Part shown: positions 6,133-35,100 of the stretch, piece by piece | Position numbering within the stretch: the stretch's first letter is position 1 | Layout of the letters: each line of letters starts with the position of its first letter | Assembly (NCBI GenBank): GCA_026387455.1 | Contig: JAPLLR010000046.1 | Coordinates: 4,921 to 68,920 of the forward strand | DNA length: 64,000 bases | Origin: Candidatus Omnitrophota bacterium | Lineage (GTDB): Bacteria; Omnitrophota; Gorgyraeia; Gygaellales; Profunditerraquicolaceae | Reading direction: 5' to 3' | The notes under the pieces: model-generated | The model's input: only the letters and a program-made list of their open reading frames with translations | Database searches by the model: none | What the model was told of the DNA's origin: nothing | Made by a program: the position numbers and the translations under genes

Positions 6133-6170
6133 TCATTCCTCCGATTTAACAACTTTAAGATCTTAATTAT

Positions 6171-6199: not shown

Positions 6200-6216
6200 A
6201 TACTTTTGTCTCAAGC

Positions 6217-6260: not shown

Positions 6261-6392
6261 CCCAGAGACGCTTTTAGCTTTGGCTTGAGGGGTGCTTTTG
6301 TTTCTAGGAGAGAAAACGCTATCAATTAGTTAGTTTTTAGCGTTGATAAAGTTGGTCTGCATGTTACACTTTACCTATACTGGAATAAAACT

Positions 6393-7637
6393 ATGGAAGG
6401 CCTAATGATTGCAAAGCCAGCAAGATTACTTATTTTAGTTTTAATAATTGTTTTGAGCCTATTGTCTTCTAGGGTTGAGGCAGAAGATTATTATAGCGGC
6501 AACCCCTACTCTTCTCCGGAGCCAAGTTCTTCCGACAATCAGGCCCCCAATAATAGTTACAATAATTCCACGGTGATAAGCTCGTTTAATCCGCAGCCCG
6601 GCGGAGTAAATAATATTCCTAATAGTTACAATAATTCCACGGTGATAAGCTCGTTTAATTCGCAACCAAGCGCAGCTTATAAGGCCCTTAATAGTTCCAA
6701 TAATTCTATGGTGATAGGCTCGCTTAATTCGCAGTCCGGCGCAGCTTATAAGGCCCCTAGCAATTACAATAGTTACACGGTGATAAGCCCGTTTAGCTAT
6801 AACACATCTTCGCAGCCCGGCGGAGGATATAATAACTCGGGCAGCATAACAAGCTATCCTAACAGTTACAACAATTCCACGGTGACATATTCGTTTAGTT
6901 ATAACACACCTTCGCAGCCCGGCGGGGGCTATAATAACTCGGGCAGCATGACAAGCTATCCTAGCAGTTACAATAATCCCATGCTGACAAGCCCGTCTAG
7001 TTATACCACGCCTTCGCAGTCCGCAGAAGCTTATGATAACTCAGAAAGTATATACTCCAGCTCTGCTTCGCTATCCAATTACAATAGCGCTACTAATACG
7101 CCGAATTATGATAATACTGTGGCTCAAAGCGCCCCAACAATATATAATGATTTATCAGAAGCTATTTATAACTCTCCGGTAGTAACACAAGCCGAGAAAT
7201 TTGGTTTAAGCGTAGAGAAAATCGGAGGGGGGGTAGGGATTACGCCGTACGATCCTGTGAAAGATGCTGTTGTATCAGCTCTTAACGAAGGTTATGAATC
7301 AGTTGTAGTAACCGGCGAGGGGGTATTGATACCCAATCCGATACAAGGTGACAAGAAAAGCGTAGTTATAGACAATAATAATCCTTCCCTTATCGGGCCG
7401 AATGGTCTTTATAGTACGTACAGGTCTACAGCAGATTTGCTCGGGGATATTTCTTCTCATGATGCTAAAGTGGCTGCGGCAGCATATACCCCAACTTCAG
7501 TAGCGCAACCGACTGGCATGCTTTCTAATTATAGCCCGGCACCTGTAAATTATAAAAGCGATACTCCAACAAGTCAGAATTATCAGTATAATGTAGCGAC
7601 CCCACAGGTTGAAGATCCCCAAATAAAGGTAGAATAA
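6393..7637 (+). CDS. secreted low-complexity Asn/Ser/Tyr/Pro-rich repeat protein with a more ordinary C-terminal domain
   Basis: 414 aa. Signal/anchor KPARLLILVLIIVLSLLSSRVEA. Repeats of NSYNNSTVISSFN.QPG / SYNT.SQPGGGYNNSGS.TSYP. The C-terminal region of about 170 aa (AEKFGLSVEKIGGGVGITPYDPVKDAVV...) is not low-complexity. No function recognised. Confidence 0.7.
   Translation: MEGLMIAKPARLLILVLIIVLSLLSSRVEAEDYYSGNPYSSPEPSSSDNQAPNNSYNNSTVISSFNPQPGGVNNIPNSYNNSTVISSFNSQPSAAYKALNSSNNSMVIGSLNSQSGAAYKAPSNYNSYTVISPFSYNTSSQPGGGYNNSGSITSYPNSYNNSTVTYSFSYNTPSQPGGGYNNSGSMTSYPSSYNNPMLTSPSSYTTPSQSAEAYDNSESIYSSSASLSNYNSATNTPNYDNTVAQSAPTIYNDLSEAIYNSPVVTQAEKFGLSVEKIGGGVGITPYDPVKDAVVSALNEGYESVVVTGEGVLIPNPIQGDKKSVVIDNNNPSLIGPNGLYSTYRSTADLLGDISSHDAKVAAAAYTPTSVAQPTGMLSNYSPAPVNYKSDTPTSQNYQYNVATPQVEDPQIKVE
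6541..7010 (+). repeat. in-frame tandem nucleotide repeats inside the Asn/Ser-rich gene
   Basis: A 39-nt exact repeat, aatagttacaataattccacggtgataagctcgtttaat, occurs at 6552-6590 and 6621-6659 (69-nt period). A second repeat family, ttcgcagcccggcgg...tataataactcgggcagcat, starts at about 6809 and 6911 (102-nt period). Confidence 0.85.
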
Positions 7638-8000: not shown

Positions 8001-8044
8001 TACCGACGAAAAAATCAGTATTTGCCAGTTCGGCTTTTATTTTT
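7993..8044 (+). terminator. putative intrinsic terminator / riboswitch expression platform
   Basis: Imperfect hairpin CTGCCGAATACCGA (7993-8006), loop cgaaaaaa, TCAGTATTTGCCAG (8015-8028). An alternative outer pairing is GCCGAA (7995-8000) with TTCGGC (8029-8034). It is followed by TTTTATTTTT (8035-8044). The left arm overlaps the 3' end of the aptamer. Confidence 0.45.
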
Positions 8045-8139
8045 AAGTAGTTAATAAGTAGTTTTAAAAATACTTTATAAACGAGAATATGAAAAACAAG
8101 AGGTTTTACCTCATAGTATTTAAATTAAAAGTATAATAA

Positions 8140-14100: not shown

Positions 14101-17100
14101 TATTACATTATTGACCCGGCAATGAATGTAGCCGGCAGAGGGGAAGTCGTTAATAAATGGAGAGATAGCGTAGCCCAGCAAACAGTCAGCATTTTAGGAG
14201 ATAAGTCGTCTACTTCAGTCACCTTTGATGAATTTGCTAATCAATCTACAGCAGTAGGGCTTGCAGAGAAATCCAATCCCCAAGGCTATATAGATAGTGC
14301 TGTAGCAAGGCGCATGGCTCAAAAGCAGACGGATGTTTCTTATAATGCAGATGGAACAGTTTCCGGATACCAGACGCTTAAATTTTCCGCGGACCACAAT
14401 GTTGCCACAGAAGTACAGGGTTTTGTATCCGGCACCACCTATGCTGCCAGATACGGGAATATGAAGCCCGGAGAAAGACATGTGCCGATTGTATATACAA
14501 ATGAAAACGGAGAGTATGACAATGATAGCGGATTCCGGGCGCCTGCATCGCGCACCATTGAAACGGATATTTACGGTACCCTTAAAACTGATCAGGGAAT
14601 TATTTCTGTGGGCCGCCCAGAAAACACCTTCAAGAGTCTGGCGATTGAAGGTAGGGTTCCTGATGGAACAGGTTCGACCAAAGGCGGAGTGATCGCCCAC
14701 GATATTTATTACGAGGCGATGAAAAAAGGCGATGGCTTTGAGTTTGTCGGTGGCACTATGGGTCAGGCGGATTTAGTGAAGATATTAAAAGGTGGAAATA
14801 AAGAGTCTGCCCCCAACATCTTAAATTCTGCGACTACTAATTTGAAAGAAACACAAGGCCTCCTTACAACAAAAAATAATGAACCGTTGCATTTAATGAT
14901 GGCTTCCGGGCAGTTCAATGATATTTCCTTTACTACAGGCGATCAGGACGGCAAACCGCAAAGTAGCACTAATCCAACCGCAGGCACATCCGCAGAAGCA
15001 GATGCCAAAAATAAGAGGCCATTGAATCCTGAATTAGACGCTAACAAGGCGTTTACCGGCAGGGTCACCGGTGAGCAGCACCTTAAATTTATGCCTTCTT
15101 TCAGCGGGGCCGGCGGAAGGGTGGAAGGGGATCTTTCTGACGTGGTAATAAGTACCACAGGGTTTAAACAGGCTGAGGTTAAGGAGCAAAACGGCAAGAC
15201 AGTGCTCAAAGATGCAAGCCAGCAGTTTACCCAGGTGCCTCTATTCTATGACCGCGAGAATCCGCAGGTGACCAAGAGGTTGTTTACCAGCACCCTAACC
15301 CCCGAGAAAAAGGATGGGGGTTTAAAGATTGAATTAAATGCCCAGGGCAATGTTATTACTGATCTGGCAGGCATAGCCGTAGGCGATGCTGCCAAGGAAC
15401 AAAGAGTACGCTCAAGCGAATTTTTGGCTGTGAAAGAAAAGGACCATGCGGGAACTAATCCTGCTGCCGACGGTGAAAAGATACAGGTGCGCCTGAGAGA
15501 TTTCTACACCGGCGGGCTGGTTCAGAAGAATGGTTCTGTGGTTTCTATTTTTGGGGAAACCGGAAAGCCGCTAGAAGAAGTGGACCCGATTGCAAAAGAT
15601 GCGGTAAGTAATTATCCGCTCACTAGGTCTTATATAGAACTGTCAGATCAGGACCTTGGCGAGTATAGCGGCACCCGGATAGCCGGGGGGATCAGGACCG
15701 CAGGTGGTGAGTCGATATTTTTCCATAATATTAGTGATCCGGAGACATTTGCCAGAGCAGAGCAAGCGGTTAAGCCGGTGCAAAAGATGACTGCCGAAGA
15801 AAATAAGGCTCTTGCCGAGAAGGTGGGCTTGGACCCTAAGGAGTTTAATAAGCCCGGCAATCAGCTGACCCCAGAGCAGATAGAAACGTTGGCCGGAAAA
15901 AGAAATATCTATAGCCTTAACCAGCTTTCTGCGGAACAGATAGATAAAGTAAGAGGAGAATTAAGCCGCTTAGGCCAAGACAGTCAGAAAAAAGATGTGC
16001 AAGCCCAAGCCGGAGATTTAGCCAGACAATTACAACAAATCAAGGCAGGCAGTATTACCCCGGAGCAGGCAGTATTCCTCTTTGGCGCGCAGGATTTGTT
16101 AAACCGCAACTTTACGCCATCCCGCCATCTCAATGTTTCTAAGAATGATTCAGGCGCAGTGCATGCCAAAGGAGAGCAGATACTTGATGCGACATTCTCA
16201 TCTAATATGGCTAATGAAGGCGGAACTATGAGCGCCAATATTACTAATATGGGAGTGAGCCTTTCCGAGAATTTGTCTGAAGGGGTCAATACCACTTCAG
16301 TGTTGGCGAACAGGCAGACTATGAAAGAGCTAGCTAAGAATGTTGGTGCTACGTATATAGGAAAGCCGCTGGATCAGATCGACGAAAGAGGAGAGGTGGT
16401 TTACGGAAAAGGATTAAATTCCGGACATTTAGGGCTAAGATTATCTGACAATTTTTATCAGGAAATTGCGGTGAACAAAGAAGGAAATGTGGTGACTGAA
16501 GGCGCAGGGATATTCGCTGGTACAAAAGAAAAGCCAGTATGGTTTTCTTATTTTGAAGGTGCCAAGGCGATCGGAGATAAGAAGGCAGAAGCCACTACGC
16601 TAGAGATGAATAATTTCCGGTATTCAGGTGTTCTTAAAGAAGGAGTAGTGGTGGCAAAGGAGGGATATGTAGATTCTCTCAAAGAAGTAAACGGCGGGAA
16701 GATAGAGCTTGGTAAAGACGGCCATGATCCGAGTAAGGGCCTGCGCACTGCCGGAGGCAAAGAGGTATTCTTTACTTCTTTGTCCACCCCTGAGGCTTTT
16801 GGCGGCGATCCGCAGGCGATGAGGAAGCAGGCGGCTTTAGAGAATGCAAGGAGCTTAAGGGCAGCAGGGAAAAGTGATGCGGAAATCGCCAAGATGCTTA
16901 AGGTTGAGCAGAAGTATAGCAAAGAGGATGCTGAACAGATTATCCGTGAATCAAAGGTAAAGCCTAATGTGGTCGCAGAAATCAAGAAAGAAGACTTAAG
17001 GAAGCTTGAGGTGTCTCCTGATTTCAAGGCAACAGGAGTTCAGGTATTGCTGCCTTCTTTCTCAGCAAACCTAATGCAGGAAGGTGGAAAGATTACCGCA

Positions 17101-20100
17101 GACTTAAGAAAGACCGCCATATCTTTTGATAACCGCATGGTCGGCCAGGGGCTGGCCACCACTTCTGTGATAAAGGATGGTGAAGTTGCTTATGTGAAGG
17201 GTATATATGCGCCATGGAGTATGGGTAAGGTTGATTTCAGGTTAGTAATTGATGACAATGGAAACATGGTTACTAAGGGTGGCGGGGTATTCGCCGGCAC
17301 AGCTGAAAACCCCATAGAATATGCCTATCAGGACGCTTTCCGCGCCAAGGGAGAGAATTTGACTGAAGCCTACCAGCTGCCTGAGCCCATTAAATTAAAT
17401 AATTATTACTATGATGCAATACTCGGCGAGGGCGGTCTAAGTATCCAGAGTGGCAAAGTAGAAAGCATAGAAGTGGCCGGTAAGGAGATAAAGCTTAAAG
17501 GCCATGATCTAGCAAAAGGCATGATTACTGACAGTAGTACTCCTACCTACTTATTCTTGGGCAGGGTTTCCCGCTTTGACAATAAAGGCAGGCCGCAGAA
17601 AGAGGAAAAACAAAGCTCTACCGAAGCATCGCAAACATGGGATTTTTCTGCCGGCAAGGAAGCTCCTGCTTTTGATCTATCCGGATCTTTCGGCGGGACT
17701 TACGGCAACGTACCTTTTATGGACATAGTAAACAAAGGGATTAATGATACCTTAGATAAAGCGGCGCCTCAAGATAGAAAAAAATTCGTAGATGATACGC
17801 TTGCGGCGCAGACTCAGCGCGCAGAGGCAAAGGGAGATGTTCAGGCGATGCTAAAGGCAGAAATGGAAAAGGCAAGCAGAAAAGATAATCTGGGTATTGT
17901 CTTGTCCGGAGATGATTTCAAGGCCAGAGGCTCGCAGAAGCTGGACTTTACACCCACCAGCAACCTCTTTACTGACGGCGGCGGAACGATCTCAAGAGAC
18001 ATTACTTATAACAACTACACCCTGGTTGTAGATAGTAAGCAGCTGGTGCCTATGGTTACTGACGGAAATGACACCAAAGGTATCTTCCAGAATAAGGCAT
18101 CAGGCAGGATTTCTATCGCAGGCGGTAAATTGGGCGGGCAGGTGCTTACTCCTGGCGCAGGCGTATACGCAGGAACTAATGAGCGCAGAATAAATGGCAC
18201 ATACCAGGATGGAATATTAAATTCTATCTATGAAGCCTCTGGCCCGGTTCCAACTCTCTTAAAGAATTATTATTATACAGCAGAGGTCAAGGATAGCGAT
18301 AGTGACGGCATAGGCGATTCCCTGAATCTTTTGGGGGGAAAAGCGCAGAATATAAATTTTGTGGGCAGGGATTTATTGCCTAATGGAGATTATGAGCTCA
18401 ATAAATCCGGGTGGGCTATTTTCGGCGACTCCAAGGGCAAGTTAGCCCGGATCGGCAGTTTTTCACCTTCGCTTACTCTCTTTAGCGAGCGCGGGCAAAT
18501 TAACTTAGATAAAGATACGATTTTAGGTTCTTTATCCAAAGATGACACAACCTTAAAACTCATGACCACTATCGATGTCGCAAAGTATAGGAGCCTGCTT
18601 GCGGCTGAAGGGTACAGAACAGAAATAAAGAGAAATGATCTTTCCGGAATAAATTATATCCTTATTTACGATGAAAAGAATAGGGAGGTTGGCAGCGCAG
18701 CAGTTAGCGATGACGGCCTGAGGGTGAAGGGGGGAGTAATTCCCATCGCCAGAGACACTGAATCAGACACTATTTTCCGCGTGTACATGTATACCGCTGT
18801 TAAAGATGATAAGATTTACTTGAAACATGACGCATGGAATATCGAACAAGGCGTTGATGACGGCAAGACATTCAATCAGCTAGCTCGAGACGATAACGTG
18901 AAATGGGGACACAGGATGTTTTTGAGAAGTGACGAGACTGAGGGCGCGGACATGGCTGTGGCGCGGATGATGTATGCGCATGGTGTTGGTTCAAGGGGCG
19001 TCTGGTTTAATGATTATGATTCAAGGGATAAGCTGCTCAAAAAGTTTGACAGCGGAGAATATAACTGGTTTAAGATGCAGGATAATTTACTTACCCAAGA
19101 AAAATACACAGGTACAGCCGTCAGGAATTTCTACAAGACTTGGGGTTTTGTCCGCAATTTTCTGCCTGCTGCTCCTAGCGTTGAAGCCAGAGCGGACCAG
19201 AGTAATGGCGGGATGGTTTTGGAAGCAGTGGGAGATGCTGCTTTGATTGCCGGGCCGTTACTCAAAGGAATCGGCGTTGGCGCAAAGGGTCTGCAACTTA
19301 TCGGTGGGACAGCAAACGGTTCCTCTAGGGTAATGAGGGTAATCAACGCAGCAGCCAAATTGGAAGGAATGAGCACTCTTACCAAGGGAAGTGTGCAACT
19401 TGCCACCAAAGGATCAGCCAGTTCTTCTAGAATAATAAGCGGCCTAAGCAAGGGACTTCTTTGGGAGGGCAGGATTGGAAAAGCGGCGCAAGTAGCACAA
19501 GGTACCACTCGCGTTGCGAGCGCTGCCCAGAATCTCTCCTGGGGTTCCAGGGCCTTAAGAGGCGGCTGGAATAGCGGAAAATTTCTGGCTGGTCGCGTTG
19601 CGCCGCGCGTCGGCCTTTACGGCACATTAGGCGGTATCAACAGCTACAATTCCATGTCTGCTGAACAGAAGGATTGGTATTCTAGCGGTAGAGCAGCAGA
19701 AGCGTCGAAGGATTCACAGAATCATGCTATTGCTTTAAGGGATACCTTTAGAAGCTGGGCAGCCAACTGGGAAGTGGGGCTGGATGGTGCCATAGGAAAT
19801 AAGGCAGATGCTGATAAGGCAGATAGTGTTTCCAAAGGCCTGCAGCAGAACGCTTCCGTAATAACGCAGAATAATTCCAAAGCGATTAAAGAAGCAGTCC
19901 CGGGCCTAGGGGGAAAAATCCTGGCGATGCCGATGGATGTTGAGCAGACCCTTTTGGGTTTTGCCGGTTTTCCTTCGAATGCCTCCAGGAATATGGGCAA
20001 ATACGGCATAGCACAGGGTTCAGCAATGAGTGGTTGGAGCATGTACAGCTATCTTTCCTCTGTTGCGGAATCAGGAATATATGCATTGACTTCCCTCGAC

Positions 20101-23100
20101 GGCTATTTTAGGAATTCGGTTTCAGACTCCTACTATCAGGGCTCTATCACTGGGGGATGGGAATCTTTATTAGGTGACGGATTCAGCAATTTTGTCAATC
20201 CTGAAAAGAGCAAAGACACCAATCCTATAACCAATCCCGAGCAGTATGCGGGATTGAGTTATTTCGCAACGCAGATGTGGTTATTGGGCGGTTACAAAGA
20301 AGGTGCAGGCCTAAAGAAAGGCGAAGCCAGAGGCACTCCGCTTTTAGATACATATCAAACCCTGACAGCCATAGAGCTTACACCAATGAATCTTATGCTT
20401 TTCCCCGGAAATGAGCTTGGTAGGCAGGTGGGCATGGTAAAAGAAGCGGCGACAGCAGGTAGAACTGAAGGCGATGCTTCTTCTTTCCGCGGCAGGTTAA
20501 ATCAGCTCGGAAACGCAAATGGCGGCCCCGGGCATCAGTTTGTGGAAAATCTTATTTCTGCAGCCCTACCTTTACGTTCTCCGCAAGCAACTCCTTCGAA
20601 TAAAAGTGAAGTTGCTCCTGTGCAATCTTCTACGGAAGCGGGAGGAACAGTAAGGTTAAATGAAAATGATGTAGTAGGCGATAGGGGCAGAAGAGCGGGG
20701 GGTAGCGATGTGAAGGCTCCTGCTTCTCAGCCTGAAATGTCACGTCCTAACTTCTTTCAGCGTTGGAGTCAGCGTAGTTATCTAAAGCAAGAAGGATACT
20801 CTTTTTCAGAAAGAAGAGCGATTGCAGATGGGCGTCTTGCGCCTACAGATAGAAGTGGAAATGTCAGGGCAGACGTAGTAAATCGTTTTAATGAGATTGG
20901 CGCTACTCCGACTTGGGTTGGAAGATCGCTTAATCGGGCAAGAGAAGCCACCACCACTTGGATTAAGAATCAGATAGACGCCAGCCCCACAGTGAACTGG
21001 TTTAAGAACGATGCCTTTGATATGTCTAAGTCTCCTGTGGTCGATGCCGGCAAAAAAGTAGCTGGCGCAGTAGCTGATGCAGGAAGGGCCACCGCAGACT
21101 GGGCTAAGAATGACGCACTGGATATGTCTAAGTCTCAGGTAGTCAACTGGGCCAAAGACACCAGCGTCGGCAAATGGCTGGCTAACGATGCCTTTGATAT
21201 GAATAAATCTCTTGTGGTCAACTGGGCAAAGAATGACGCCGCTCCTTGGGTCAAGAATCAGATAAATACTAGCCCCACAGTGAACTGGTTCAAGAATGAC
21301 GCCTTTGATATGTCTAAGTCTCGGGTTGTCAACTGGGCAAAGAACACTGCTCTTCCCAATATCGCTGCCTCTGCCAATCCTAAGAACTGGACCACCTATA
21401 ATTGGGCTAAGACAGCTGCTATCTGGGCAAGAGACACCGCCACCCCCTGGATTAAGAATCAGATAAATACCAGCCCCACAGTGAACTGGTTCAAGAATGT
21501 TTGGCAGCTTGCTACTTCCTCGCAGTATCGTTTCCTCAATAGACGCGGTATTAAAGATCCAACTACGAGAGCTGCAATCATCAGGGACGGATATTCAGCT
21601 CCGGAATCTCCCAATAAGACCTTATTTTATGAGATGCGCGCTGATCAATATTTAAAAGACAATGGTTTCTTCTTTAGAAGGCAAAGAACAGCGATTAGGC
21701 AAGGGCGTTTAAAATCTAATGATTTGAGTCTTAGCCGTGATTTTAGCGAAATTCGTAAGGGGCGCGTAGTTTATGATGAGGCGGCCCAAAATGATGTTTT
21801 ATCATCCGGCCGCAATGTACATCTGTCGATGGCTGGTGAATGGGCAGCGGATATAGGCGGAAGGAAGAAGGGTGATGGCGGAAGATCGTTAGAAGCCAAG
21901 ATTCTAAGAGTAGAAAAAGGCGAAGACGGCGCGACTCGCATTTGGTTGGATACAGAGGAGATCTTCGGTGGCCGCGGCGCTACCTCAAGGGACGGAAAGA
22001 CCATATACTTCAGCCGCAACGCGCACGATGGGACAGATGTGCATGAAAGCACAGAAGCAGCCTTGCTATCTAAAGGCATATCCCCGTCAGCGTCACATAA
22101 AATAGCGGCAGAGGCTGAGGTAAGGTATTTAGCGCGTACGCTCGGCTATGACTTAAATGATCCCAGCCAAAGAATGCTAGTAGAGGAAATGGCAAGGAGC
22201 CATTCTGATGCCACTAAGGTCGCTAATAAGGAAAGGGCTCCGCCAGCGCCAAAATCGCCTTCCCATGTAGTTGTTGCTCCCGCAGAAGGACCGGGTTTTA
22301 GAGCTGCTGTTGGAGAAGGCGAAAGTATCAGCGATGTTGCCATAAGAGCTGGCCGCAGGCCAGTAGCTATGCTTACCGAAGGCACACCCAGCGATGCCTC
22401 TCGTTCCAGAACCGCAGCCAATCCCGAATCCGAAACCGTATCTAAATCTCAAGAAGCAATTAAACAAGATAAGCTGACCAGAGAGGCCCGGATATCTGAA
22501 TTCAGGCGGCAGCAGGAAGAAAGACAGGAAATTGAAAGAGCCCAAAATATACTTGGGAGTAAGGATCTTAAGCCGCAATTTATCTTTGCCCCTGAGACTG
22601 GCAGGCGCGTATTCATCGCTACCGCTGATGGAAAGGTGGCATTAGTAAAACATGGAGAAGAGGCGCCGGATATATCCCGCAGACCCATTGCCCTTCTTCC
22701 TGCACCTAAACCTGCGATCGAAGTAAAATCTGAATCCAAATCTGCACCCGCGCAATCTAAAGAAGTTGCGGAATCCAAAGCCCAGCCTGATGATAGAGTG
22801 TCTGTGTCTAACGAAGCCAGGCTTAGGAATGAACAGGCCAATCAGGAAAAGAAGGCTGAGTTTAAAGCAAAACAGGAGAAACTTGAAAGAGTAGCAAAGA
22901 TTGTTTCTGAGACGCCTAATACCGATAAAGCCAAGCTAAGAGTGGCTAAGGAAGTAGTTAAAGATAGAAGCTTACCTAAGAGGGAGCGTTTAGCAGAGGC
23001 AGATAAACTTATAGAAGCAGCAAAGCCATATGCACCCAAGAAAGAAGCTGCTAAGCCAGAAGTCAAAGAGCCGGTTTCTCAGTTGGTTGAATTAGGCGAT

Positions 23101-26100
23101 GGTAAAGGCACGATCAAGGTAAAGGTAAATAATCCGGAAGCGCTCGCAGGAGACCAGAAGAAATTAGAGAGATTAAATCGCGCTGTCGCTAGGATAGAAA
23201 AACAGAATTCTCAAGCTCAGGATGAAGCGGTACAGGGCCAGATTCAGGAAGCTGGATTCTGGGCGAGATTAATCGGCAGAAAAGGCCGTTCAGCTTTTGA
23301 AGCCAGTCCTTCATCCAACCCTGCCGAAAGCCCCGCATTAAAAGAATTAAAAGCGCAACGCGATGCCTTAGCCGAGAAGATCACTAAGAATATGTCGCCT
23401 GTCCCTGAAGCTGATTTGGCCAGACAACATCTCCAGCAATTAAGGAAAGCCATAAATATTCTTAAGGAGACTACTGACTCTGACCGGGCTATGGATAGAG
23501 TGGTTAAGGAAGTAGTCAGCAAGGATAAAAAGCAAACCAACAAAGAGCGCCAAACAGAGGCGAAAAGGTTTATAGAAGAAGCCAGGCGCTATCTGCCTGA
23601 ATCGCAAGCCCCTAAGCCTGTTATACCAAAAGGTCCATCCGTCGTATATTTTGGCAACGAAAGCGGGCCAGTACAAAAAATCCATCTTAGCCCCAAAGAA
23701 ACAACGCAAGATGCAGCAGCGACAGCAGCGAAGGTTTTCCGCAAGCCTATTGCGCTTCTACCTGCTCATATATCTGCACCCAAGCCATTCTTTAGCAGAG
23801 TGATAGATGCCATAAAATCGAAGTTCTCTAGATCTGCTAAGTCTTCCGAGCCAGAGTTACTGCCTTCAGCTAGTCAGGAAGCAAAAGAGGCGATTAGAAA
23901 AGAAAGAGTAGCACAGAGAGATCAGCTTAAGAAAGTAGCGGCCATAGTAGCCGAAGCCGAGACTCCTGGTCAAGCTAAAGTAAAAGTAGCGCAGATGCTG
24001 CAGAGCGAGCCGGCTAAGAAAGACCTATCCAAAGAAGAGAGAAAGGTAGCTTTAAAGAGAGCAGAAGAGCTTATAGAAGAGGCAAAACCGTATGCACCTG
24101 AAGTCGAGCAAGGAAAAGAGCATGCCAGCAAGATCGAAAAAGTTACCAAGATCCTTCAGCAAACCACTGATTCTGATCAAGCCAGGGCAAAAGTCGTAAA
24201 AGAAGTAGTTTCAGACGGTAGAAAGCAGACTAAGAGAGAAAGAATTGTTGACCAGCGTAAGGCAGACCAGTTGATTGTAGAAGCCAGGCGCCAACTGTCT
24301 AAATCGCAAACTCCTAAGCCTGCTATGCCAAAGAGCCCATCCGTCATAAACTTTGGTAATGAAAGTGGGCCAGTAGTAAGAATCAACCTTGGCCCCGGAG
24401 AAACTGCGCAAGATGCAGCAGCGAAGGCTTTACGCAAACCTATTGCGTTTCTACCCGCACCTAAATCCCAAGCCAACAGGCAAGAAGTTGCTAAGCCTGC
24501 TCCATCCGAAGATGTTCGGCCGATGTCTGATGAAGCCATAGCTAAGAATCGGCTGGACAATAGGCAAAGGATAACTGAATGGAAAAACCTGAAGAGAATA
24601 GGACAGATACTTTTCGAAACAGCAGATATCCAGCAAGCCAAGGCAAGAGTAGCGCAAGAGGTGCTTGGGGTCGGTAAGGAAAGATCCCAGAGAGAGCAAA
24701 AAGCTGCGCTTAGGAAGGCAGAAGGGCTTATAGCAGAGGCAAGGCAACATGTGCCTAGCGCCACCACCACTACTGTTGCTCCCAAGTCCAAAATGACAGA
24801 GGTGGCTAGGATCGTGCGCGGTGAGAATGGCGAGCCTGCATTTGAGGCACATCCGACTATGAGTTCCTCCAGCGCGCAGTTGAAGGAGTATGTAGCTACA
24901 GAAGAAGCAGCCCATCTGACATTAGGTAACAGAGGCACAGCCGCGGAAGAAATCGCTGCTAATGTATTTACCCTTGAACGCTTAGGCATACGCGATGCTG
25001 AGAAAGTTACTGATCCGCATTTAAGAGCTTTAGCAGAGATATCATTGGACCATGGCGTAGAGAGCCCCATAGTAAGGACTGCCCGTTTTTATAGCGAGAT
25101 AGATGCGCAATTAAGAGACCAGCTTGTAGACAGCCATGGTAATTTGCGCCGGGACGTTTTGGATAACGCTACTAGACAGCTTGCGGGCCTTAGGAAAAGA
25201 AGCAGCGATGTAGAGGCTCGCAGAGACCATTTGAAAGATTTATTATCCTGGTCGCGCATAGCCGTCAGTAAGGAAGGCCAGCCTCAAGAAGTTTTGGCGC
25301 GTTCGCCGTTCAGGATGGCAGACGCTGGTAAAGAAAGCGCGCAGAAGACGCTAAGTGAATTAATTAGTCAAAGTAACTCCTTGTCTACAGAAGAGGCAAA
25401 AGCTCTTGGGGTTGCAATAAAGAATGCAATAAAATCAGGAACGCCAATTGATCAAATACAAGATCCTACCATTAGAAAGGCAGCTCAACTTTGGAAAAAA
25501 GCTTTTGAAAGTCCAGAGCTAAGAAAAGTGATGAGCTTAGAACTTAAGGAAGATCAGATAGCCCAGACTATATTAGAGGCTGTATCGAGGCCGATACTAG
25601 GTAGAGATTTGGGTGCTGGAAAGACAGCAGGTGATATCGCAGCCTTTGCAGTTCGTTTCCAGGTAGCTACGCAAGAAGGTAAAGAATTGAATGAAAGTTC
25701 TTGGAAAATAAAAGATTTCTTAATTGAGCAAGCAATTGATGGCTCTGACCCCATAGCAAGATTTTTTATGGAAGAAATCGCTAAATCCGCAAAGATATTG
25801 AGATGGGTTGTCGTGCCAGATGGAAAAGGCGGCACAGAGTTTAAAGAAGTGCCTATTGATGGTTTTGAAACCCCAGCGGACGCAAAGAGTAAATTTATTT
25901 TTGCTGATAGTGAAACTCTACTAGAAGTTTATCTAGGAGCAAAAGAGAAGAATGGCGAGAAAATGCGCGAAGCATTTAGGCAACTTACAGGAGCTAGCGC
26001 AGACGAAACACAGCTTTTCTTTGCCAATGCAACTTTGATTAAAGCAGAAATAGGGAAAATGTTTAGTCAGTTAAGTAGGGGAAATATTAAAAAAGCAGAG

Positions 26101-29100
26101 CTTATAGCTATTTTATATGAAAAATTAATGAAGTTAAAGGAAACCACGCCGGATTTAATAGATGGTCGATTAATCATAAAAGATGGATTAGGTAAGGAAG
26201 TAGAGGTTCATTCCTCAGCTTGTATAAAGGATGAATATCTACCGACGAAGTTACTTGATTTATATAGAAGCATGCGTAAAGCTAAAGAGTTACCCTTTTC
26301 AATGTCTTTCGAAGAATTTAAATCATATGCCCAGCATTGGGCTAGTTCTATGAATCAAAGAATTGACGCAAACGTCTATGTTGAGCTCGACCATTTCGTA
26401 ATGACGCCAGAAGAGAGGATTAAAGCTAACTCTCATCCTTATAGAGTAGCTCAAGAAGATGGGACGGGTCGTCCGAGTACTATTTTAGGAGATCCAATAG
26501 AGGCAGCTTTCTTAGTTGCTAGAATTACTGATGCTAAGCTGAAGTTAGTCTCCGAACCCTCTTTTGATAAGTATACCCAAGAGGAGCGAATAGCAGATAT
26601 AGCGAATGCTCGGCTTCAGGAGTCAAAGAAAAAAGCAGATTTTGCGGAGTTGATTAGCGGGGAATATGGCATAGGAGCAGATAAATTTACTGGCTTTACT
26701 GCAACCCCTGGTAGGGATATGTTACAGTATTATGGAGTAGGGAAGAAGCAACGCGATATACGCTTACTTGATCCGGAGAAATTAATTAAGGAAACGGATC
26801 GAGATTTTAGAGCGACACTTGACAAAGCTATTGAAGGTCAGATAGATACACATATTGGTAATATTAGAGATAATCCGCGCGCTTTACATTTAGGCATTGG
26901 TAGAGATGCAGCTATTGTAAGAAGAGCCTATGAAACAACAAAAAAAGCGGTAGAAGCTGGAGAATTAGTTAGTTCAGATGGTCGTCCTTACGAAGTTAAA
27001 TTTATTGAAGGGTTTGAACCAAAAACACAACAAGCATTGATGAAGGAGTATAGTAAAGGACGCCTTGAAAAACCGATGATTATATATGTTGTCGGTGATC
27101 CTTCAGGAGGTAATATAGCTGCTTTATCAAGAGGTGTAACATCAGCTGCTACACATCAGCTAACCATGGAAGGTATAACTAATATAACTCAGCATCTAGG
27201 TAGGGCAGGAACAGAAGGTAGGGCCGGAGGTTTACATCCAAAGGATCCAGTGAAATTTTTAACACTATCTTTAGAAGATCAGTGGATTACTCCTAAGCAA
27301 AAGAAAGAATTAGCCGGGTTAACTGGTAGAGACTTGACTAAGAAATTAATAGATATTGGGTATAATATTGATACAGTTATTGGAGAACAAGGTTTTCACC
27401 GTACATTAATTACTTCAGTTTCAAATATACAATATACACAAGCAGAGTTAGCTGCTTTAAAGGCAAATTTACAGGCAAGAAGAGATTCTCAGCGGACACA
27501 AAATAGAGATTTAGGCGTATCTTTGAATGGTACCTTAAATAATGTGCCCGAAGGCGCGCGTAAAGTTATAGAAGCAAAGTTTTCTAATGCTCAACGCGGT
27601 TGGACAATTCCCGCAAGCGATTCTAAAACAGCTCCGCTTAATTTAACTACTGCGGGCAGTCTCGTCTGGCAACAAACCCAGTCACTTATGCATGCTGCGC
27701 AAGACGACCGTAAGTCAATAGCTTCTCTTAATCTTGGTTTGTCTTCAACAACCCAGGCAGCGTTACAGGCAAGAGATTTAACCACGCAGGAAGCTTTTAC
27801 TGCTGTAACTGAGATGGTAGATAATGGCGTTCTGAATTTAGCCCATCCTGAAAGAGGAATTACCTCGTTAGCAGCTATCGGTGGAGCGGTGAGGGCGCTA
27901 AACAGCCAGAATTCGACTCAGCCGCTTAATATAGGTAAGGCTGAAATCGATGATATGTATAATCCTGTTTCCCGCGATTATAGCTTACTGCGTAGTGTGA
28001 CTACACAACTGCAGAATACTAATCCGCAATTAGCCAGAGAGCTGCAAAGTGTTTATAGTGGTACTTATACCACTTCGCAAAGACAAGAATCTATCCGCCA
28101 AGCTGAATTAAAACTTGAGGCTAGGCAGATTCGCTTAGTGAATAACCAAGAAGCAGGATGGGAAAAGACAAAGAGAGGAATTGGTTTTGTTGCTGGCGGC
28201 GCGGTGCTTGGTACGGTGGCCGGCGGTGTCTCCTGGTTCCAGAATAAACAGCGCCCGACAAAAGACGAGATGAAGGATATATACAGGAATACTAGTTTTA
28301 TCTTGTCGAACCTTCCTTTAATAATCAGGGCTAAACCCGAAGCAGGGGTTGCGGTGGCGAAATTATCATTCCTGGCACTGGGAATTGTGCTAGCTCTTAA
28401 ATTAGCGCCCCCAGCTATACCTTTATTAGCTAAATTAGCCGCAAGCACCAGCCTGGCTGGCTTTCTAGCTCCGATAGTGACTTCTTCAACAACTAATCTC
28501 GCGATATTAGCAGGGACAAGTGCTGCCATAGGATTGCCGGCAATGAAAGCTGTGGATGTTGCAGCCAGAAGGCAACAGGTCACAGTAGGCAAGATCACTC
28601 CTTTGGCCCAGGAATTAGGCGTATCCGAGGGGCAGTTAGCTCCATTATTCACTCCGCGCATCCAGCCGCGCGCGCCAAGTGAGATGATTGGCCGTACTTC
28701 TTTCCTGCAGCAGGCTAATCCTAGCAAAGCCGCGAAAATGGATGTTAATAAGTTGGTTCCCGGCCTTAATATGGATGAGGTAAAAGGGTTCGTTAGTATC
28801 TTTAACCGTCCATATCGTAATGCCGTAAATGCCACCACAAAGTTAATAGAAGCCAATTCCTATTTCAGCGCGGACAATCTGCAGGCGCAGGCTTTTAGAT
28901 CGATTAATCTTTCGGCCAAAGCCGAAGAGCAGAGCGAGCGGGAAGCAAACGCAAAGAGGCAGGAGCTAAAGGAGGAAGCAAGGAAGCTTAAGATCCTGAC
29001 TCAGGCTTTATTAGCGCTAGCGGGAAATGAAAGCCGGCCTAATTCTGGTAGAGTAAAATTAAGCCGGGTCAAAGAGAAATTAGAGCGCTCCGGAGAGGAT

Positions 29101-32100
29101 TTGTGGGAGGTAGCAGAGAAGTATCGTCTTATCCAACCGGAAAATGCGGTTACCTTTGATATGGCTGAGCCGGTGGTAGAGAGATTATCCCGCAAGGCAG
29201 GCATCTCTAGAGATGAGGCCAGAGAATTTGTTTATCCGTTGGTAACTCAGAGGACTAACCAGAATATCGCGCAAGACGTGCAGAATGCGCATAATGAGTT
29301 GATGGTAACCATGCCAGTAGCTGCCGATATGATACCTTTACCTACCATCGCCAGTGCGACTAGAGATGGCTCATGGCAGCGCTTTACGGACAGATTAAGA
29401 GAGCGCAATGACGCTGACCTTGCGGAAGCCAAACTTATTGCCGAGGCGGTTAACAATACTCAGGCAAAGGGTTGGAATATTGGCAGAGTTCTTACACATA
29501 TTAGCCCGGAGAATTTAGCAAAGACAAGGCAAGATATTGCTACCGGTAAAACAGATACTAATGTTCCGGAAATTGCCAAGCCTGCTGAGCCGAAAGCTCC
29601 TACTCAGGCAGAGATTCGCTCTAGCCTCGAAACTTTAAGCCAGAAGACAGAACGGGTCACTCTTGCCGGAGGACGCAAGGTAGAGGGAGTCAGGGTAGAG
29701 GCCGGCACAGCGGTTGAGATCAGCAATCACCGTCCGGATGGAAAATTTGTAGCTAAGGATCTAGCCAAGCCTAAGGATACGGCAAAGATTAGCGTAAATA
29801 AGGACGGCTCTGTCTTAATTACTAGCAGAAACGGTTTAGGCGATAAACTTGAGAAATTAATCAAGAAAGAAGTTCCGCAAGCGCCTTATGTAGACGCGGT
29901 AAAGCCGATCTCTAGTATTACGCAGACTGTCACTACGATTGCTGTGTGGGGTTTTAGTGTTGCGATTGTTTTAGCAGCAATGCATACCGGTTGGTTTGAC
30001 CCCGCAGCATTAGCGCATCTTGCCGGCTGGAAGGCGTTCTTAGCCAAGGGAATCATTAACGGATCGGTTATGTTGGCAGCTTTGACTTTGCATGAACTTG
30101 GTCATGCTGCTGTCGCTTTCTTTGCCGGAGACAAGAGCCAGAAGGTCAGGGACAGGTTGACGCTCAATCCGCTTAAGCATTTAAGCGTATGGTCTTTACC
30201 TATATTAGCAGGATTACCGGGCGCGGCAAAGCCGGTAGAAGTCAATTTTGGCAGATTAAATGACAATAAGGTGAGGGCAGTAGCTGCCGCAGGTCCGGCA
30301 GTTAACTTAGTTACTGCTGGCCTGGCGCTAGGAATATTCTTATTGACCGGTAATCCCACGGTTGCCTTGTTCGCAAAGCAGTTTGCAATTATCAGCGCTG
30401 TGCTAGGTACCGTTAACCTTATTCCATTTGCCCTTCCTCAATGGATAAGTAAGTTTATCAATAAAGGCAACAATAAGCCGGTATTATTTGACGGCGCGCG
30501 CGTGATCTTAGGCGCGAAAGAGAAAGTTTCGCCTAAGATGCAAATGGTAGGCGGTGTTGCCCTTATGCTTTATATGTTCGGGCTTGGGCCAATTCTGCAA
30601 GGACTTGGTTTTGGCGCTGGATTAGGCGCAGGCATGGGCGGCGGTGGAGCCGGTGTAGGAGTAGGCGGCGCAGCAGGCACCATCGGCAAAGGTAGTGGTT
30701 CTGGCGGTGGCGCTGGCAGAGGCACAGCTGAGGTTAAGAGAATTGAAGAAGATGCCAAAAAGGTCAAGCAGTGGTTTAATGATGATTTGAAGCAGATAAG
30801 AGAGGCAAGAGAGGCTCTAGACAGACGGCTGAGAGAGTTACGCAGTCTTATACCTAAACCTCCAATATTAAGCGAAGAGCAGAGAATATTTACTGAGAAT
30901 ATCTTCAGCCGCATCTATCCGCGTTTGATGACTGTCGGAACTCGTCTAGTGGATAATTACCAGAGACTAGCTGGTGAATATGGCTTAAAGCCGGGCAATA
31001 TACGTCTTTATGTGGTTGGAGGCACTGCCAAGAATAAACAGTTAATCGGCTTCAACAGTGATATTGATTTAACTTTTGTTGTAGAAAATTCCGCTGGTTC
31101 TTTAGAGGTCCTGCCTAATAGAGAAGAGTTAGTGCAGAGCCTCTTTGCGGACACGATAAGAGATGTCTTCGGCGATGCCACTGATCAGGAGAGGGCAGCC
31201 ATCCGCGGTAAACTAGATATGTTAAGGTTAGGAGGAGCGCTGAATGAGATTAATGGTCCAGCATTGCTCCTGGCTAGCAGCGAATCCAATAAAGCGCAAC
31301 AGTCTTCACCTAAGCCTACTCAGCCTACTGGACAAGGTCAAAATAGGCATCAGGAGACTCCGATTGCCCCGACACCATCCACGACTTTGCCAACTCAGGA
31401 GCAAACCGGAGAAAAATCGCCTCTCAGAGGAGCTGTGGTGGGCATGTTTGGCTCAAGCATTGGCGTAGGCAGCCATCCGATAGACATGCTCGCGCCTTTA
31501 GATACCTTAGGTAATACTGTCAATTCACTACAACATTTACTCAGTATAGGTGCTGCACAACGTGTGCTTAGCCCGGGTATTCCCGGGGCGACTGCGAATG
31601 CGCTTTCGCAGGTCGTCGGTACGACAAGTGCGCACAATATAGTTACAATAGTTGCAGTAGTAGGATTAGTTGTAGTAGTAGTCACAGTTGGCGCAATAGC
31701 TCTGGTTAATAGCTTCAGAGCAGATGCGAAAACTGCAGGTGCAGGAAGTGTAATCAGCGGAGACGCTGAAAAGACCAGTGGTTCCCAGTTTGCGCCCGGT
31801 AAAGATGCCGGAAACAAAGGTTCCAGAGGTGTAACCGAAGGAACTCGTAATGGCACGGGGTTGCCTGTAGGAAACAATACAGGTAATACCGGAAATACTG
31901 GTAATGCAGCTACTGGATCCAATGGAAATAATGCAGGTTCTGGCAAGAGAACCGGTGGTTGGGCGAGTGCGGTCGAATTAGTAAGAAAACTGTCTTCATT
32001 TGTACGTATCAAAGGTCCCGCAAATAGCCTCACTCCCGCGCAAGTTGTGTCGGAAACCTATGGCGCTCGTGGTCCGCCCGCAGCACTAACAATCATTATA

Positions 32101-35100
32101 GCTACTTTCGCCGCTACGGTAATGCTGGGCAACATCTATGCCGCATCAGCGGTAACGGTTGCCGGTTTACTCGGCGGATTAGCCATAACAGCCCTCTCGG
32201 TAATTGCCTCCTTTAGCATTAATCATATATACTCCTCAAGACTTTATCCGCAAGACGGCCAGGCCAGCATTATAACCACAGGCGTCTACCGTTATTCTCG
32301 GCACCCGCAGCATCTTTGTCTGCAGTTATCCATGCTTGGTTTCTTGGCGATGTTCCCCACAGTTTATACCGCCATTACCGTCATCGCCGTTGTTTCATTA
32401 TTCCATCTTGAATCCAGAAAAGAGGAAGCGAAGTTATTAAATGACTCAAAGCTGGGAGCAGATTATGCCGAGTATCTCAAGAATTCCGGCTTGAAGATGC
32501 TCCCCAGAGATATTGCTAAAAAGATTAGGCCGTATACTTCTTCCGTGGCAGGAGTGGTGACGGCTATTGTTGTAATCGGAGGCTTATTAGCGGCCCCCCT
32601 CCAGGGATCGACCCCCGCTAAAGCCTCCGATACAACGTATACTACAACCAATCCAATCAATAATATAAATTTAACCAAGTATGGCGAGCCTTCCGTGGCA
32701 GGAGTTCGTCGTACAAATGTTGTATCAGAGGGCTCCACAGAAGGCCGTCCCTCCAGGACATTGACCCCTTTTGCCGGAGCCCTCTTTACAACTCAAGGAG
32801 GTGTACTATGTGCCCTATTAATATTAACACTATTAGCATTGACCACATCGTTGATTTTGGCAAGGACCGCACCACTTTCGCAGCAGCCCGTGAACCTGAT
32901 ACGCACCACCTTAGGATCTTCCTTATTTATCAGGATACTGGCAACGTCTACACTCGTAACGGCCGGGCTGATAGCTGGGAGGAGCTTATTGGCGGCAGGC
33001 GTGATACCATACTTGAGCGCGTTCTTGATGCTCGTAGGAACGGTGTTCCTACTTATCGACTTAACGGTTCGCACGAATAAAATAGGATTAACGGTTCGCA
33101 CGAATAACAATAACATAGGAGGTGTAAAATGTGCACAGATTATAACGAATTACAATTCAACCACTTCGTCGTTACAGCCGACGGCACAATCTTTGGAAGT
33201 GCTAGACACGAAGGTCACACCTACAACTTTATTCTCCACGGCAACTATGTCCAGGCCCAACACGGTGAACAATGGATCGATCTGGACACGCCTATCGCAG
33301 AAGTTGTCAGGAGAAGGGCTCAATCAGCCTACGCTATCGCTCCCCGGTACAAGGCCAGCAGGTTCATCTTCGATTAGAACTGCCGGAGCAGTGGTAGCTT
33401 TGGTGTTGGGTGTGATTCTTATTGCCGGCGCGCTGGCAGGCATTCCTCATGGAGTGGCCCCTGTCAGCGCCGCCGTTGCATTGGGGATGTGCAGCCAGGA
33501 AGGAGTTGCTACCGAGGAAGATAGCTTTAGGAATTTAAGGTTAACCCCTGATTACATCCGAAGCGTCCGCTTCGATGAGGAAGAAATAAGAGGGGCGGAT
33601 GAAACTGAACGCCGCATCAATCTTCTTATAAAAGGTATGGGGGACTCTAATTCTCCTTCCGAAATTGGAATAGTAAAGATCCCGGGAAGCCTGAAACGGG
33701 ATAGCTGCCGGGTGTTCAGGTTCAGTAATATAGAAATGACATTTTTTGAGGTCACCAGCCGCTTTGATTCGCAGGAAGGAAGATTCTCTTTGCCGGCGTT
33801 GCCTCAACAGCATGCTTTCCTGATTTCATCAAAATCAAATGATGTCATAGGGCACGGAATCATTAATCGGCCTGTCGGTATTAACGATGAAGTATGGTTC
33901 AGGTATGCTATCCACGGCGGACCTCACAGCAAAATTGGAGCTGATTTCCGGAAAAAAGATTATTATGGGACCAAGGCTTTGGTTTTGATTATGGCGATAT
34001 GTGTAAGCAGCGGTATTTTCAAGGGCCCTGTGAATGCGATTACAACATATTTTGAGAGAGATGAACAGCGCGCTGATCCGGAAGCAGTTCCCGCGGGTAA
34101 GAAATTTATATATGCCAGAGGATGTACTCCTGTTAAGGATAATGATTATTCTCTCTGGCAGTTTAGAATGGATGGTAAAGCCATACCTACCGTAGATGTA
34201 GATGAAAAAGAGCTTGCTAAGCTTGATGGTCGGTCAGCGCAGGAAGACGACTTTGTGGAAGTCAAACTCGGTGACCTGGTGTTTGAGAACGGTCAGCTTT
34301 TCTACCGCCCGAAGGCAAAACCTGAGGATTCAAAGGGCTTGTCCGGTTTTGCGCTTAACTTGAGCCTCTGGCAGTCAGGTTTGATTGTCACTGCAGTTAT
34401 CGTTTTAGTCGCAGCTATAGCCGTAGCCGTAATGGCTAATAGCGTCAGGGGAGATATTTCTTACTTGGATAAGGCTAGAGTTATTCTAGCCAGCCGCTAT
34501 CTGGAAGATTATCAGCGCAGGCAGTTGTTTACGAGAATGGCTAAGGGAGAAATCAGGTTTACCCAGGACACTAGGTTCAGCGACGAAGCGGTGTCCATAT
34601 CAGGAAAGTCATTAAAAGATATTGCCCAGGAAGTATTAAAAGTTATTAATTACTATGAAAATTCGACGCCCTCAGTCAAGGCCAAGGGCACCAATATTCT
34701 GGCCAGACTGTTTTCTTCCCTTGGTTTTATAGTGTTTGTTATTGTGGGTATATATGAATTTGTCTATGCCATGTCTGATTATAACGATGGCAGGGGCAAA
34801 AATTACGCTGCTATGAATAATGTGGATGAACTTAGCTATTCCGTTAGAGATCGTATTTGGGCTTCTCAGGAAGAGTTCATCAGATTATTAGGCGAGGATC
34901 CCAGTAAGGCTGTAAAAGCCGACAAAAAAGAGAAAATCGGCAAGGTAGCTCAGATGTTGGATTTCATGAATGTCCATCGCCAGGCCATCCAGAAATATGC
35001 CGATCAGTATGGAATCGATCCGGAGCTACTTGCCGCGATCCTCTTGACTGAAAGACTGGATATGTTTGAAGGAGATTTCCCGTGGGAGGTTAATACTGAC

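Follow-up and report, generated by a model that had tools for sequence, protein, structure and literature searches.

A very divergent, probably SF2-type P-loop NTPase module within a giant Omnitrophota membrane protein

The window, the whole stretch of 64,000 nucleotides that was analysed, contains a giant open reading frame (ORF), and the question raised by this locus is whether the protein carries a motor of its own. An earlier note on this DNA had recognised four blocks, at aa about 5,800-6,380, as the nucleotide-binding domains of a divergent SecA-like motor embedded mid-protein. Translation confirmed that the four blocks lie in a single ORF, in frame 1 and in the correct (SF2) order, and that the range given for them was correct. 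The module (Table 1), whose limits were set by homology to its relatives and by a GC3 trough, is indeed located in the interior of an ORF of at least 18,620 aa. The reading favored here, with a rough probability of 0.45, takes aa ~5790-6440 as a real P-loop NTPase cassette of the SF2 (DEAD/SecA-like) type, conserved but very divergent, within a giant membrane protein of Omnitrophota type.

Table 1. Location of the giant ORF, the putative ATPase module and neighboring features in the window
Feature	Position (nt)	Strand	Residues (aa)	Basis
Two T2SSE-type secretion/pilus ATPase genes, upstream	1820-2893, 2994-4322	+		Pfam T2SSE, E = 1.8e-47, 1.9e-31
Giant ORF	8140..63999	+	at least 18,620	Longest stop-free stretch; ATG at 8140; continues past window end
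Hydrophobic signal-peptide-like N-terminal segment, FVSKFQAWIRVVAFIVVAVFLPEQV, then AQA|AQ	8206..8280	+	23-47	Hydropathy scan, sequence
Peptidase_C39	8683..8922	+	182-261	Pfam PF03412, E = 4.1e-07
Putative SF2-type ATPase module, whole	25507..27459	+	5790-6440	Family alignments; GC and GC3 profiles
Candidate Q-motif glutamine, 22 residues before Walker Lys	25555..25557	+	Q5806	Gln in 7/8 family members
Motif I / Walker A, LGAGKT	25609..25626	+	5824-5829 (K5828, T5829)	Translation
Motif II / Walker B candidate, ADET	25999..26010	+	5954-5957 (D5955, E5956)	Translation, family alignment
Insertion of ~190 aa between motifs II and III	26062..26589	+	~5975-6150	Spacing conserved in family
Motif III, FTGFTATPG; YY at aa 6197-6198	26686..26712	+	6183-6191 (T6187-A-T6189)	Translation
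Second RecA-like domain	26677..27414	+	6180-6425	
Motif-V-like GDPSGGN	27094..27114	+	6319-6325	G6319, G6323, N6325 invariant 9/9
Motif VI, (Q)HLGRAGTEGRAGG / QHLGRAGTEGRAGG	27190..27231	+	6351-6364	Q6351, R6355, R6361 invariant 9/9
Strand FLTLSLED, directly after motif VI	27256..27279	+	6373-6380	Family consensus W-Y-L-T-I-x-L-E-D
First hydrophobic segment after module	28342..28398	+	6735-6753	Kyte-Doolittle scans

The giant ORF has the characteristics of Omnitrophota giant membrane proteins (West-Roberts 2023, Seymour 2023), namely a length above 20 kb, many membrane segments, an N-terminal signal peptide followed by a C39 domain, and an upstream type-II-secretion-like locus. According to the literature, predicted signal peptides adjoin C39 domains in these proteins and a type-II-secretion-like locus lies upstream of their genes, with which the T2SSE gene pair of the window agrees. 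The C39 region (aa 22-281) matched the homologue P0003 with E = 5e-99, and the signal-peptide-like segment was kept in that homologue. Other Pfam matches in the giant ORF were Peptidase_M50 (~aa 7311-7402), ICMT/PEMT (~aa 8014-8099) and Response_reg (~aa 11515-11615). A block of 30-40 membrane segments, predicted by Kyte-Doolittle scans, begins at aa 6735 and extends to aa 12401. Only the C39 N-terminus and the ATPase module were found to be common to other giant proteins.

Relatives of the module are few. When 1.84 billion representatives were searched exhaustively with phmmer, only five came up: three that are Omnitrophica/Omnitrophota MAG proteins by annotation (7277, 5637 and 1333 aa), and two entries without an organism name, P0002 (852 aa, JGI/IMG) and P0005 (a 328-aa fragment). 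Three further relatives came from GTDB, on contigs of Omnitrophota MAGs, where they lie in open stretches of 8 kb. In total about nine related modules were found, all named ones being Omnitrophota MAG proteins, and the module is restricted to giant ORFs of this group. The relatives are distant (14-38% identity), with the blocks in register in 8-9 of them. Motifs II and III are ~200-230 aa apart in the family. Of the six copies that keep both Walker A and motif VI, five have 489-567 aa from one to the other.

Conservation was concentrated in the blocks. An alignment of nine sequences, which takes in every relative found, has 537 columns. Of these, 32 were conserved in all or all but one sequence, and 9 of the 32 fell within the four blocks (31 scored columns), compared with 1.85 expected (hypergeometric p = 2.4e-5). 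The catalytic residues, whose loss in all homologues would have spoken against a motor, were retained: the Walker A Lys was present in 8/8 and the Asp of the DE box in 9/9 sequences. G5825 and G5827 of Walker A were likewise invariant (8/8). Motif III was conserved as a class only ([ST][AG]T), with TAT, TGT or SAT in 8/9 sequences and loss in P0004. Motifs V and VI, with the Gln and arginine fingers, were found in a second RecA-like domain, as expected of SF2 proteins. It is highly probable that the module is an SF2 cassette. Three conserved elements, Q5806, GDPSGGN and FLTLSLED, were absent from the earlier note. The spacing between the Gln and the Walker Lys (~21-22 residues) is similar in SecA and DEAD-box proteins.

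The alternative that survives best, itself rather unlikely, is that an SF2 core has degenerated into a pseudo-ATPase and would now serve in structure, nucleotide sensing or protein binding, possibly outside the cytoplasm. Catalytic positions are eroded in some copies: the Walker A Thr is replaced by Ala in 2/8 sequences (GKA in L002 and L004), and E5956, present in 8/9, is lost in P0001a, where DE has become DL. The motif VI Arg pair is 6 residues apart across the family, compared with 3 in SecA and DEAD-box proteins, so that the second Arg is displaced by 3 residues relative to canonical SecA. In the window copy the strand before DE is only weakly hydrophobic (LTGASADE, compared with for example ITIMDE in relatives), and two positions otherwise conserved in 8/9 sequences deviate, P to R at 6010 and W to K at 6372. 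The location of the module would fit this alternative as well. The N-terminus of the giant protein looks like a cleavable signal peptide, and hydropathy scans detected no further hydrophobic segment between aa 42 and aa 6734; therefore the module may lie outside the cytoplasm, where no ATP would be available, which counts against an ATP-driven role. However, the invariant residues are exactly the catalytic ones (Lys, Asp, Gln and two Arg), which one would not expect if the fold alone mattered, and GKT, DE and TAT are all retained in the window copy. The prediction that the window copy is catalytically active is evenly balanced.

Membership of the SecA family, the more specific claim of the earlier note, found no support in the profile searches. 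The hmmscan check that had been proposed, against Pfam (SecA_DEAD, DEAD, Helicase_C), found no match at E <= 10 in the window copy or in five relatives, and three more relatives matched no Pfam family at E <= 1. The Pfam models SecA_DEAD, SecA_PP_bind, P-loop_SecA and SecA_SW had no match in 9 family members or in the whole 18,620 aa. E. coli SecA, used as positive control with the same tool, scored 437 bits on SecA_DEAD (PF07517) and 310 on P-loop_SecA (PF21090). A search of NCBIfam with the module gave nothing at E <= 10, no significant match to the curated SF2 profiles (Pfam DEAD, Helicase_C, ResIII, SecA_DEAD) was observed, and the single sequence and three family profiles, when searched against PDB sequences, gave chance-level matches only, without SecA among them.

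Profile-profile comparison by hhalign gave probabilities of 1-12% overall and 6-12% against the SecA profile. In the top local matches, motifs of the module are paired with their counterparts in SecA, DEAD-box proteins, UvrB and DinG, and LGAGKT is aligned to the Walker A of all four. SecA was the highest-scoring comparator (NBD1 28.8, NBD2 32.4). Its lead at NBD2 persisted with a depth-matched 6-sequence SecA profile; at NBD1, with matched profile depth, the SecA score was no better than the DEAD-box score. The best local match placed motif VI and the following strand on SecA QLRGRSGRQGDPG..FYLSLED (score 32.4, P = 0.002; 26 columns, 42% identity). Realignment placed motif III on SecA MTGTA and the preceding stretch on SecA ITFQNYFRLY..GMTGTA. 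The full-length score of 32.2 was no better than that of block-shuffled controls (mean 27.5, maximum 32.5), so the hhalign signal rests on short motifs.

A true SecA-family paralogue, fused into the giant protein, docking on SecYEG and pushing the giant polypeptide through the channel, is quite improbable. The hhalign results in favor of SecA, the position of the insertion, which is that of the SecA preprotein-binding domain, and the existence of Pfam-detectable SecA_DEAD domains in published giant proteins all speak for it. The order of elements is also that of canonical SecA (E. coli b0098): Gln, Walker A, DE, a large insertion, TGT/TAT, V, VI and a strand ending in LED. Against it stand the empty SecA profile searches and the equal NBD1 scores. 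Furthermore, the insertion is dissimilar to the preprotein-binding domain (PF01043; SecA residues ~220-378), with no Pfam match and no hhalign similarity, its sole hhalign match being off-diagonal, to SecA 587-639. No SecA_SW match was found for the helical scaffold, wing and two-helix-finger region after NBD2, where only a conserved helical stretch (QIDAQ...) is present; a C-terminal domain is lacking as well. Unlike the soluble canonical SecA, the module is fused within a membrane protein. What stands of the SecA-like motor is a DEAD/SecA (SF2)-type P-loop core with two RecA-like domains, the first of them putative, and an insertion at the position of the preprotein-binding domain.

Structure prediction gave fold-level support that was obtained independently of the motifs. 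Both AlphaFold2 models of the module had low confidence (mean pLDDT 50 and 56). Around the P-loop, domain 1 had pLDDT below 50 (model residues 1-95 and 153-211), with only the post-P-loop helix as expected. The insertion was mostly helical and partly confident (pLDDT 70-90, model residues ~210-300). Foldseek with the module model gave nothing at E < 0.04. The structural matches were generic SF2 helicase domains and SecA was not in the top 60. In these models domain 2 has the SF2 helicase-type fold class.

Equally improbable as the SecA paralogue is a nucleic-acid-dependent SF2 helicase or translocase unrelated to secretion, acting for example on cellular or prey RNA or DNA. Unlike generic SF2 cores (eIF4A/RhlE, UvrB, UvsW, Snf2, DinG), the module has no detectable nucleic-acid-binding accessory domains, is found in a membrane/secretion context and gives no match to the Pfam models DEAD and Helicase_C; the ~190-aa insertion between motifs II and III also sets it apart from DEAD-box proteins. 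That the four blocks are chance matches, to which a length of 18,620 residues offers many opportunities and which would fit the lack of a supporting database profile, is effectively refuted by the in-register conservation in 8-9 distant relatives, the column enrichment and the fold-level support.

If the inferred ATPase activity of the SF2 cassette is correct, ATP would, by analogy with SF2 enzymes, be bound in the cleft between the two RecA-like domains. Domain 1 would contribute Q5806, K5828/T5829 of Walker A, D5955/E5956 of Walker B and T6187-T6189 of motif III, and domain 2 would contribute motif V (G6319, G6323, N6325) and motif VI (Q6351, R6355, R6361). Hydrolysis would then drive the opening and closing of the two domains. 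The insertion would be the likeliest substrate-handling element, because it is placed where SecA has its preprotein clamp. A role of the module in handling polypeptides, the inferred substrate, is putative and rather doubtful. Nothing was found in support of ATP-powered movement of a downstream rod, which had been suggested as an alternative to self-driven translocation of the giant protein.

A more far-reaching and very improbable scenario is that the module and the C39 domain form a 'biogenesis cassette', in which a Pfam-invisible SF2 motor would thread or ratchet the polypeptide to which it belongs, over 18,000 residues long, in cis into or across the membrane, or, if exported, would work outside the producer cell, for example in prey on prey ATP. 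If true, such an in-cis or in-prey motor would be unlike SecA and make up a new class among SF2 protein motors. Peptidase-containing ABC exporters combine a C39 peptidase with a membrane domain and an ATPase, and the giant protein likewise unites a C39 peptidase, membrane segments and an ATPase in one polypeptide. This is an analogy only, with homology seen in the C39 domain alone: the ATPase of the giant protein is SF2-like and not ABC-type, and the parts are thousands of residues apart.

SecA_DEAD-like domains inside giant Omnitrophota proteins have been described, together with the idea of self-export, in 2023 (West-Roberts et al. 2023, bioRxiv 10.1101/2023.11.21.568195), and a PF07517 architecture cluster has been reported (Nielsen 2026, bioRxiv 10.64898/2026.06.07.730766). 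The published domains were detected with Pfam models and also lack the SecA scaffold/wing region. Unlike them, the window module escapes Pfam detection at E <= 10, precedes the membrane block instead of following it, and has no detectable preprotein-binding domain. Judged by the published descriptions, it is a more divergent, Pfam-undetected variant of these SecA-like domains. The similarities are a mid-protein SF2 core without scaffold or wing, Omnitrophota hosts for all named relatives, and a giant ORF with a signal-peptide-like N-terminus, C39, membrane segments and type-II-secretion-like ATPase genes nearby.

The giant protein is encoded by a single huge ORF on the plus strand, which starts with the ATG at 8140, has no stop codon before the end of the window and covers at least 18,620 aa. 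The earlier note had described four sequence blocks at nt 25540-27260 (aa 5801-6373 of the ORF) and read them as a SecA-like DEAD motor embedded in the middle of the protein. The observation was confirmed by translation, as all four blocks were found in frame. In the region that holds them, aa about 5790-6440 and here called the module, the elements follow in the order Q, I, II, a gap of about 200-230 aa, III, V and VI, where the Roman numerals are SF2 helicase motifs. In the second half of the module, helices and strands follow one another as in a helicase C-terminal domain. Modelling of the full module with AlphaFold2 from a 6-sequence alignment gave a mean pLDDT of 50, and a Foldseek search with that model returned nothing significant. 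The module can be taken with fair confidence as a core of SF2 type made up of two RecA-like domains; the model of the first domain is of low confidence.

Features of the giant ORF and of the genes upstream of it
Feature	Protein position (aa)	Window position (nt)	Strand	Remark
T2SSE-family (GspE/PilB/PilT-like) secretion/pilus ATPase gene		1820-2893		first of two in tandem, just upstream of giant gene
T2SSE-family (GspE/PilB/PilT-like) secretion/pilus ATPase gene		2994-4322		second of two in tandem, just upstream of giant gene
IS200-like Y1 transposase gene		4441-5058		between secretion ATPase genes and giant gene; Pfam Y1_Tnp, E = 8e-11
Peptidase_C39	182-261		+	near ORF N-terminus; Pfam
LGAGKT	5824-5829	25609-25626	+	
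ADET	5954-5957	25999-26010	+	
FTGFTATPG	6183-6191	26686-26712	+	
QHLGRAGTEGRAGG	6351-6364	27190-27231	+	
M50-peptidase-like membrane stretch	about 7311-7402	about 30070-32440, with the next stretch	+	Pfam
ICMT/PEMT methyltransferase-like membrane stretch	about 8014-8099	about 30070-32440, with the preceding stretch	+	Pfam
Response-regulator receiver domain	about 11515-11615	42680-42990	+	Pfam

A profile search for SecA_DEAD and Helicase_C, proposed in the earlier note, gave no Pfam match in the region. No SF2, SecA, DEAD or helicase domain was found with Pfam and NCBIfam over the region or with Pfam over the whole 18,620 aa, and none of the relatives of the module had an SF2 or SecA match. Against the PDB sequences, neither the single sequence nor any of three family profiles rose above chance-level matches, so that the module was matched by none of Pfam, NCBIfam and the PDB sequences. 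When 1.84 billion cluster representatives were searched exhaustively with phmmer, only five relatives (P0001-P0005) emerged. Three, with 7277, 5637 and 1333 aa, bear an Omnitrophica/Omnitrophota MAG annotation; the others are P0002 (852 aa, JGI/IMG) and P0005, a 328-aa fragment. P0001 (MBF0384904.1, 7277 aa; locus L001) carries two copies of the module, at aa about 1745-2400 and 6140-6850. Three further copies came from scanning GTDB genomes by pattern, all in fully open 8-kb stretches of Omnitrophota MAG contigs. A word-prefiltered search of the protein collection with the single region, the 6-sequence alignment or a 9-sequence short alignment gave no match; these negatives are not evidence of absence, because P0001-P0005 belong to that same collection. 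No related loci were seen in genome contigs searched with the single protein or in metagenome contigs searched with the short alignment, and tblastn against collections of plasmids and phages was likewise negative.

In the alignment of nine copies, identity to the window copy was 14-24% over the full module and at most 38% in the best-conserved C-terminal block, and 32 of 537 columns were conserved in all sequences or all but one. The Walker A lysine and the DE acid, whose conservation the earlier note had named as a check, were retained: K5828 in 8/8, D5955 in 9/9 and E5956 in 8/9 sequences. G5825 and G5827 were invariant too (8/8), as were G6319, G6323, N6325, Q6351, R6355 and R6361 (9/9), and a glutamine 22 residues before the Walker lysine was present in 7/8 members. 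Departures from this pattern were also observed. Motif III is absent from P0004, and the first P0001 copy, the most divergent one, has DL in place of DE and a longer loop between the two motif VI arginines. Walker A reads GxGKA at loci L002 (CAIOTT010000026.1) and L004 (CAIOPG010000004.1), while their close relative L003 keeps GKT; the replacement of the Mg-coordinating threonine by alanine suggests that catalysis was lost in some lineages. In the window copy the strand preceding DE is weakly hydrophobic, and the residues at aa 6010 and 6372 differ from those conserved elsewhere in the family.

The invariant GDP[ST]GGN (window 27094-27114) resembles the GDSAGGN nucleophile elbow of alpha/beta hydrolases of the hormone-sensitive-lipase/GID1 type. 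PDB matches to GDSSGGN of GID1/esterase proteins had E-values of about 0.7-1.4 and were not significant. A nucleophile elbow was rejected, since no serine is conserved at the nucleophile position, and the segment was for the same reason read as a convergent strand-turn-helix representing SF2 motif V.

Our tentative reading, to which we give a probability of about 0.45, is that the module is an SF2 ATPase cassette in which ATP-driven domain closure would work on a polymer gripped by the insertion between motifs II and III. The favoured polymer would be a polypeptide, with a role in the biogenesis or processing of the giant protein. P0003 (MBL7081377.1, 5637 aa) matches aa 1-281 of the window protein (nt 8140-8985; signal-like segment and C39) with E = 5e-99, and apart from this and the ATPase module the two proteins are unrelated. 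When the whole protein was tiled against its relatives, only the C39 N-terminus and the module were common to them. Such sharing among giant proteins speaks for a core role in biogenesis or processing and not for a role as cargo. The C39 domain keeps candidate catalytic residues, a cysteine in GRPCGSKAL and a histidine in NHYVLV.

The topology of the protein calls for a caveat. In a crude hydropathy scan, the only hydrophobic segment near the N-terminus was aa 23-41, with VAQA|AQ after it; aa 42-6734 had none, and 30-40 segments lay within aa 6735-12401, so that the module precedes the membrane block. The N-terminus is like a Sec signal peptide, with a basic KFVSKFQAWIR, a hydrophobic core and PEQVAQA|AQ, and is conserved in P0003; predicted signal peptides are known from the literature to adjoin C39 domains in Omnitrophota giant proteins. 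Given this signal-like start and the long stretch lacking hydrophobic segments, the module might be exported beyond the cytoplasm, and this would speak against ATP-driven work inside the producer cell's cytoplasm. The receiver domain would normally face the cytoplasm. That the module is instead a degenerate or extracytoplasmic pseudo-ATPase is rather improbable. The losses of the Walker A threonine and of DE are confined to some copies, and the window copy keeps both GKT and DE.

The module was compared by hhalign with a profile of 79 metagenomic SecAs plus those of E. coli (100% identical to b0098) and B. subtilis. The best match covered motif VI and FYLSLED (score 32, P = 0.002-0.007, 26 columns, 42% identity), followed by Walker A (score 27-29, P = 0.006-0.03); the DE match was not significant. 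The local matches were collinear, with a probability of only 5-12%, and of 1.5% against the single E. coli SecA. The power of the method is low, as profiles of DEAD-box proteins and SecA, known homologues, reach only 53% against each other. Column shuffles scored 17.7 on average, but shuffles of 25-column blocks reached 32.5, and therefore the full-length score comes from short motifs only. A DEAD-box profile (five E. coli paralogues and eIF4A) scored 26 on Walker A and 22 on motif VI, and UvrB and DinG scored below it. With a depth-matched 6-sequence SecA profile, the first SecA nucleotide-binding domain (NBD1) tied with the DEAD-box proteins and the second (NBD2) led by 5-9 points. Among the comparators SecA may thus be called the closest, although weak, match, and the layout is SecA-like. 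The interpretation in the earlier note is partly supported; the features that define membership of SecA were tested for and not found. The two motif VI arginines lie 6 residues apart in the module, compared to 3 in both SecA and DEAD-box proteins. A true SecA paralogue is unlikely, and a nucleic-acid helicase equally so. Chance as the origin of the four blocks can be dismissed, as they hold 9 of the 32 conserved columns where 1.85 were expected (p = 2.4e-5).

The concept of SecA-like domains in Omnitrophota giant proteins is already published: West-Roberts et al. (2023, bioRxiv 10.1101/2023.11.21.568195) proposed for them a role in exporting the giant protein itself, and in Nielsen (2026, bioRxiv 10.64898/2026.06.07.730766) the long Omnitrophota proteins include an architecture cluster with PF07517. 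What the present analysis adds is a family so divergent that Pfam misses it, with a motif VI geometry of its own. The SF2 cassette would be a more divergent ATPase family, overlooked by standard annotation, with K5828, D5955/E5956 and R6355/R6361 as residues open to test. If active on polypeptides, the module would be a tractable way into giant-protein biogenesis, the synthesis, insertion and export by bacteria of chains tens of thousands of residues long; if it lies outside the cytoplasm or lacks activity, the proposal that such domains drive self-export would need revising.

Published Omnitrophota giant genes encode many membrane helices and a C39 domain beside a predicted signal peptide, and upstream of them lies a locus resembling type II secretion. 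The window gene agrees with them in its signal-like segment and C39, its membrane segments and the upstream T2SSE genes; a TPR gene also lies upstream. A 5-kb Logan contig from SRR20698647 was the only other place where the protein of the first T2SSE gene turned up.

A sharp GC trough was observed across the module (window 25500-27750), with GC of 0.36-0.41 compared to 0.45-0.50 in the flanks. GC3 at the module was 0.269, compared to 0.44-0.50 in the rest of the ORF; nowhere else in its 56 kb is the value lower, and it lies over 3 SD under the ORF mean. The effect lies largely at synonymous sites, because amino-acid composition differs only mildly. The only other stretch of low GC3, at window 8890-10400, follows the C39 domain, and the two shared cassettes are thus the parts of the ORF richest in third-position A/T.
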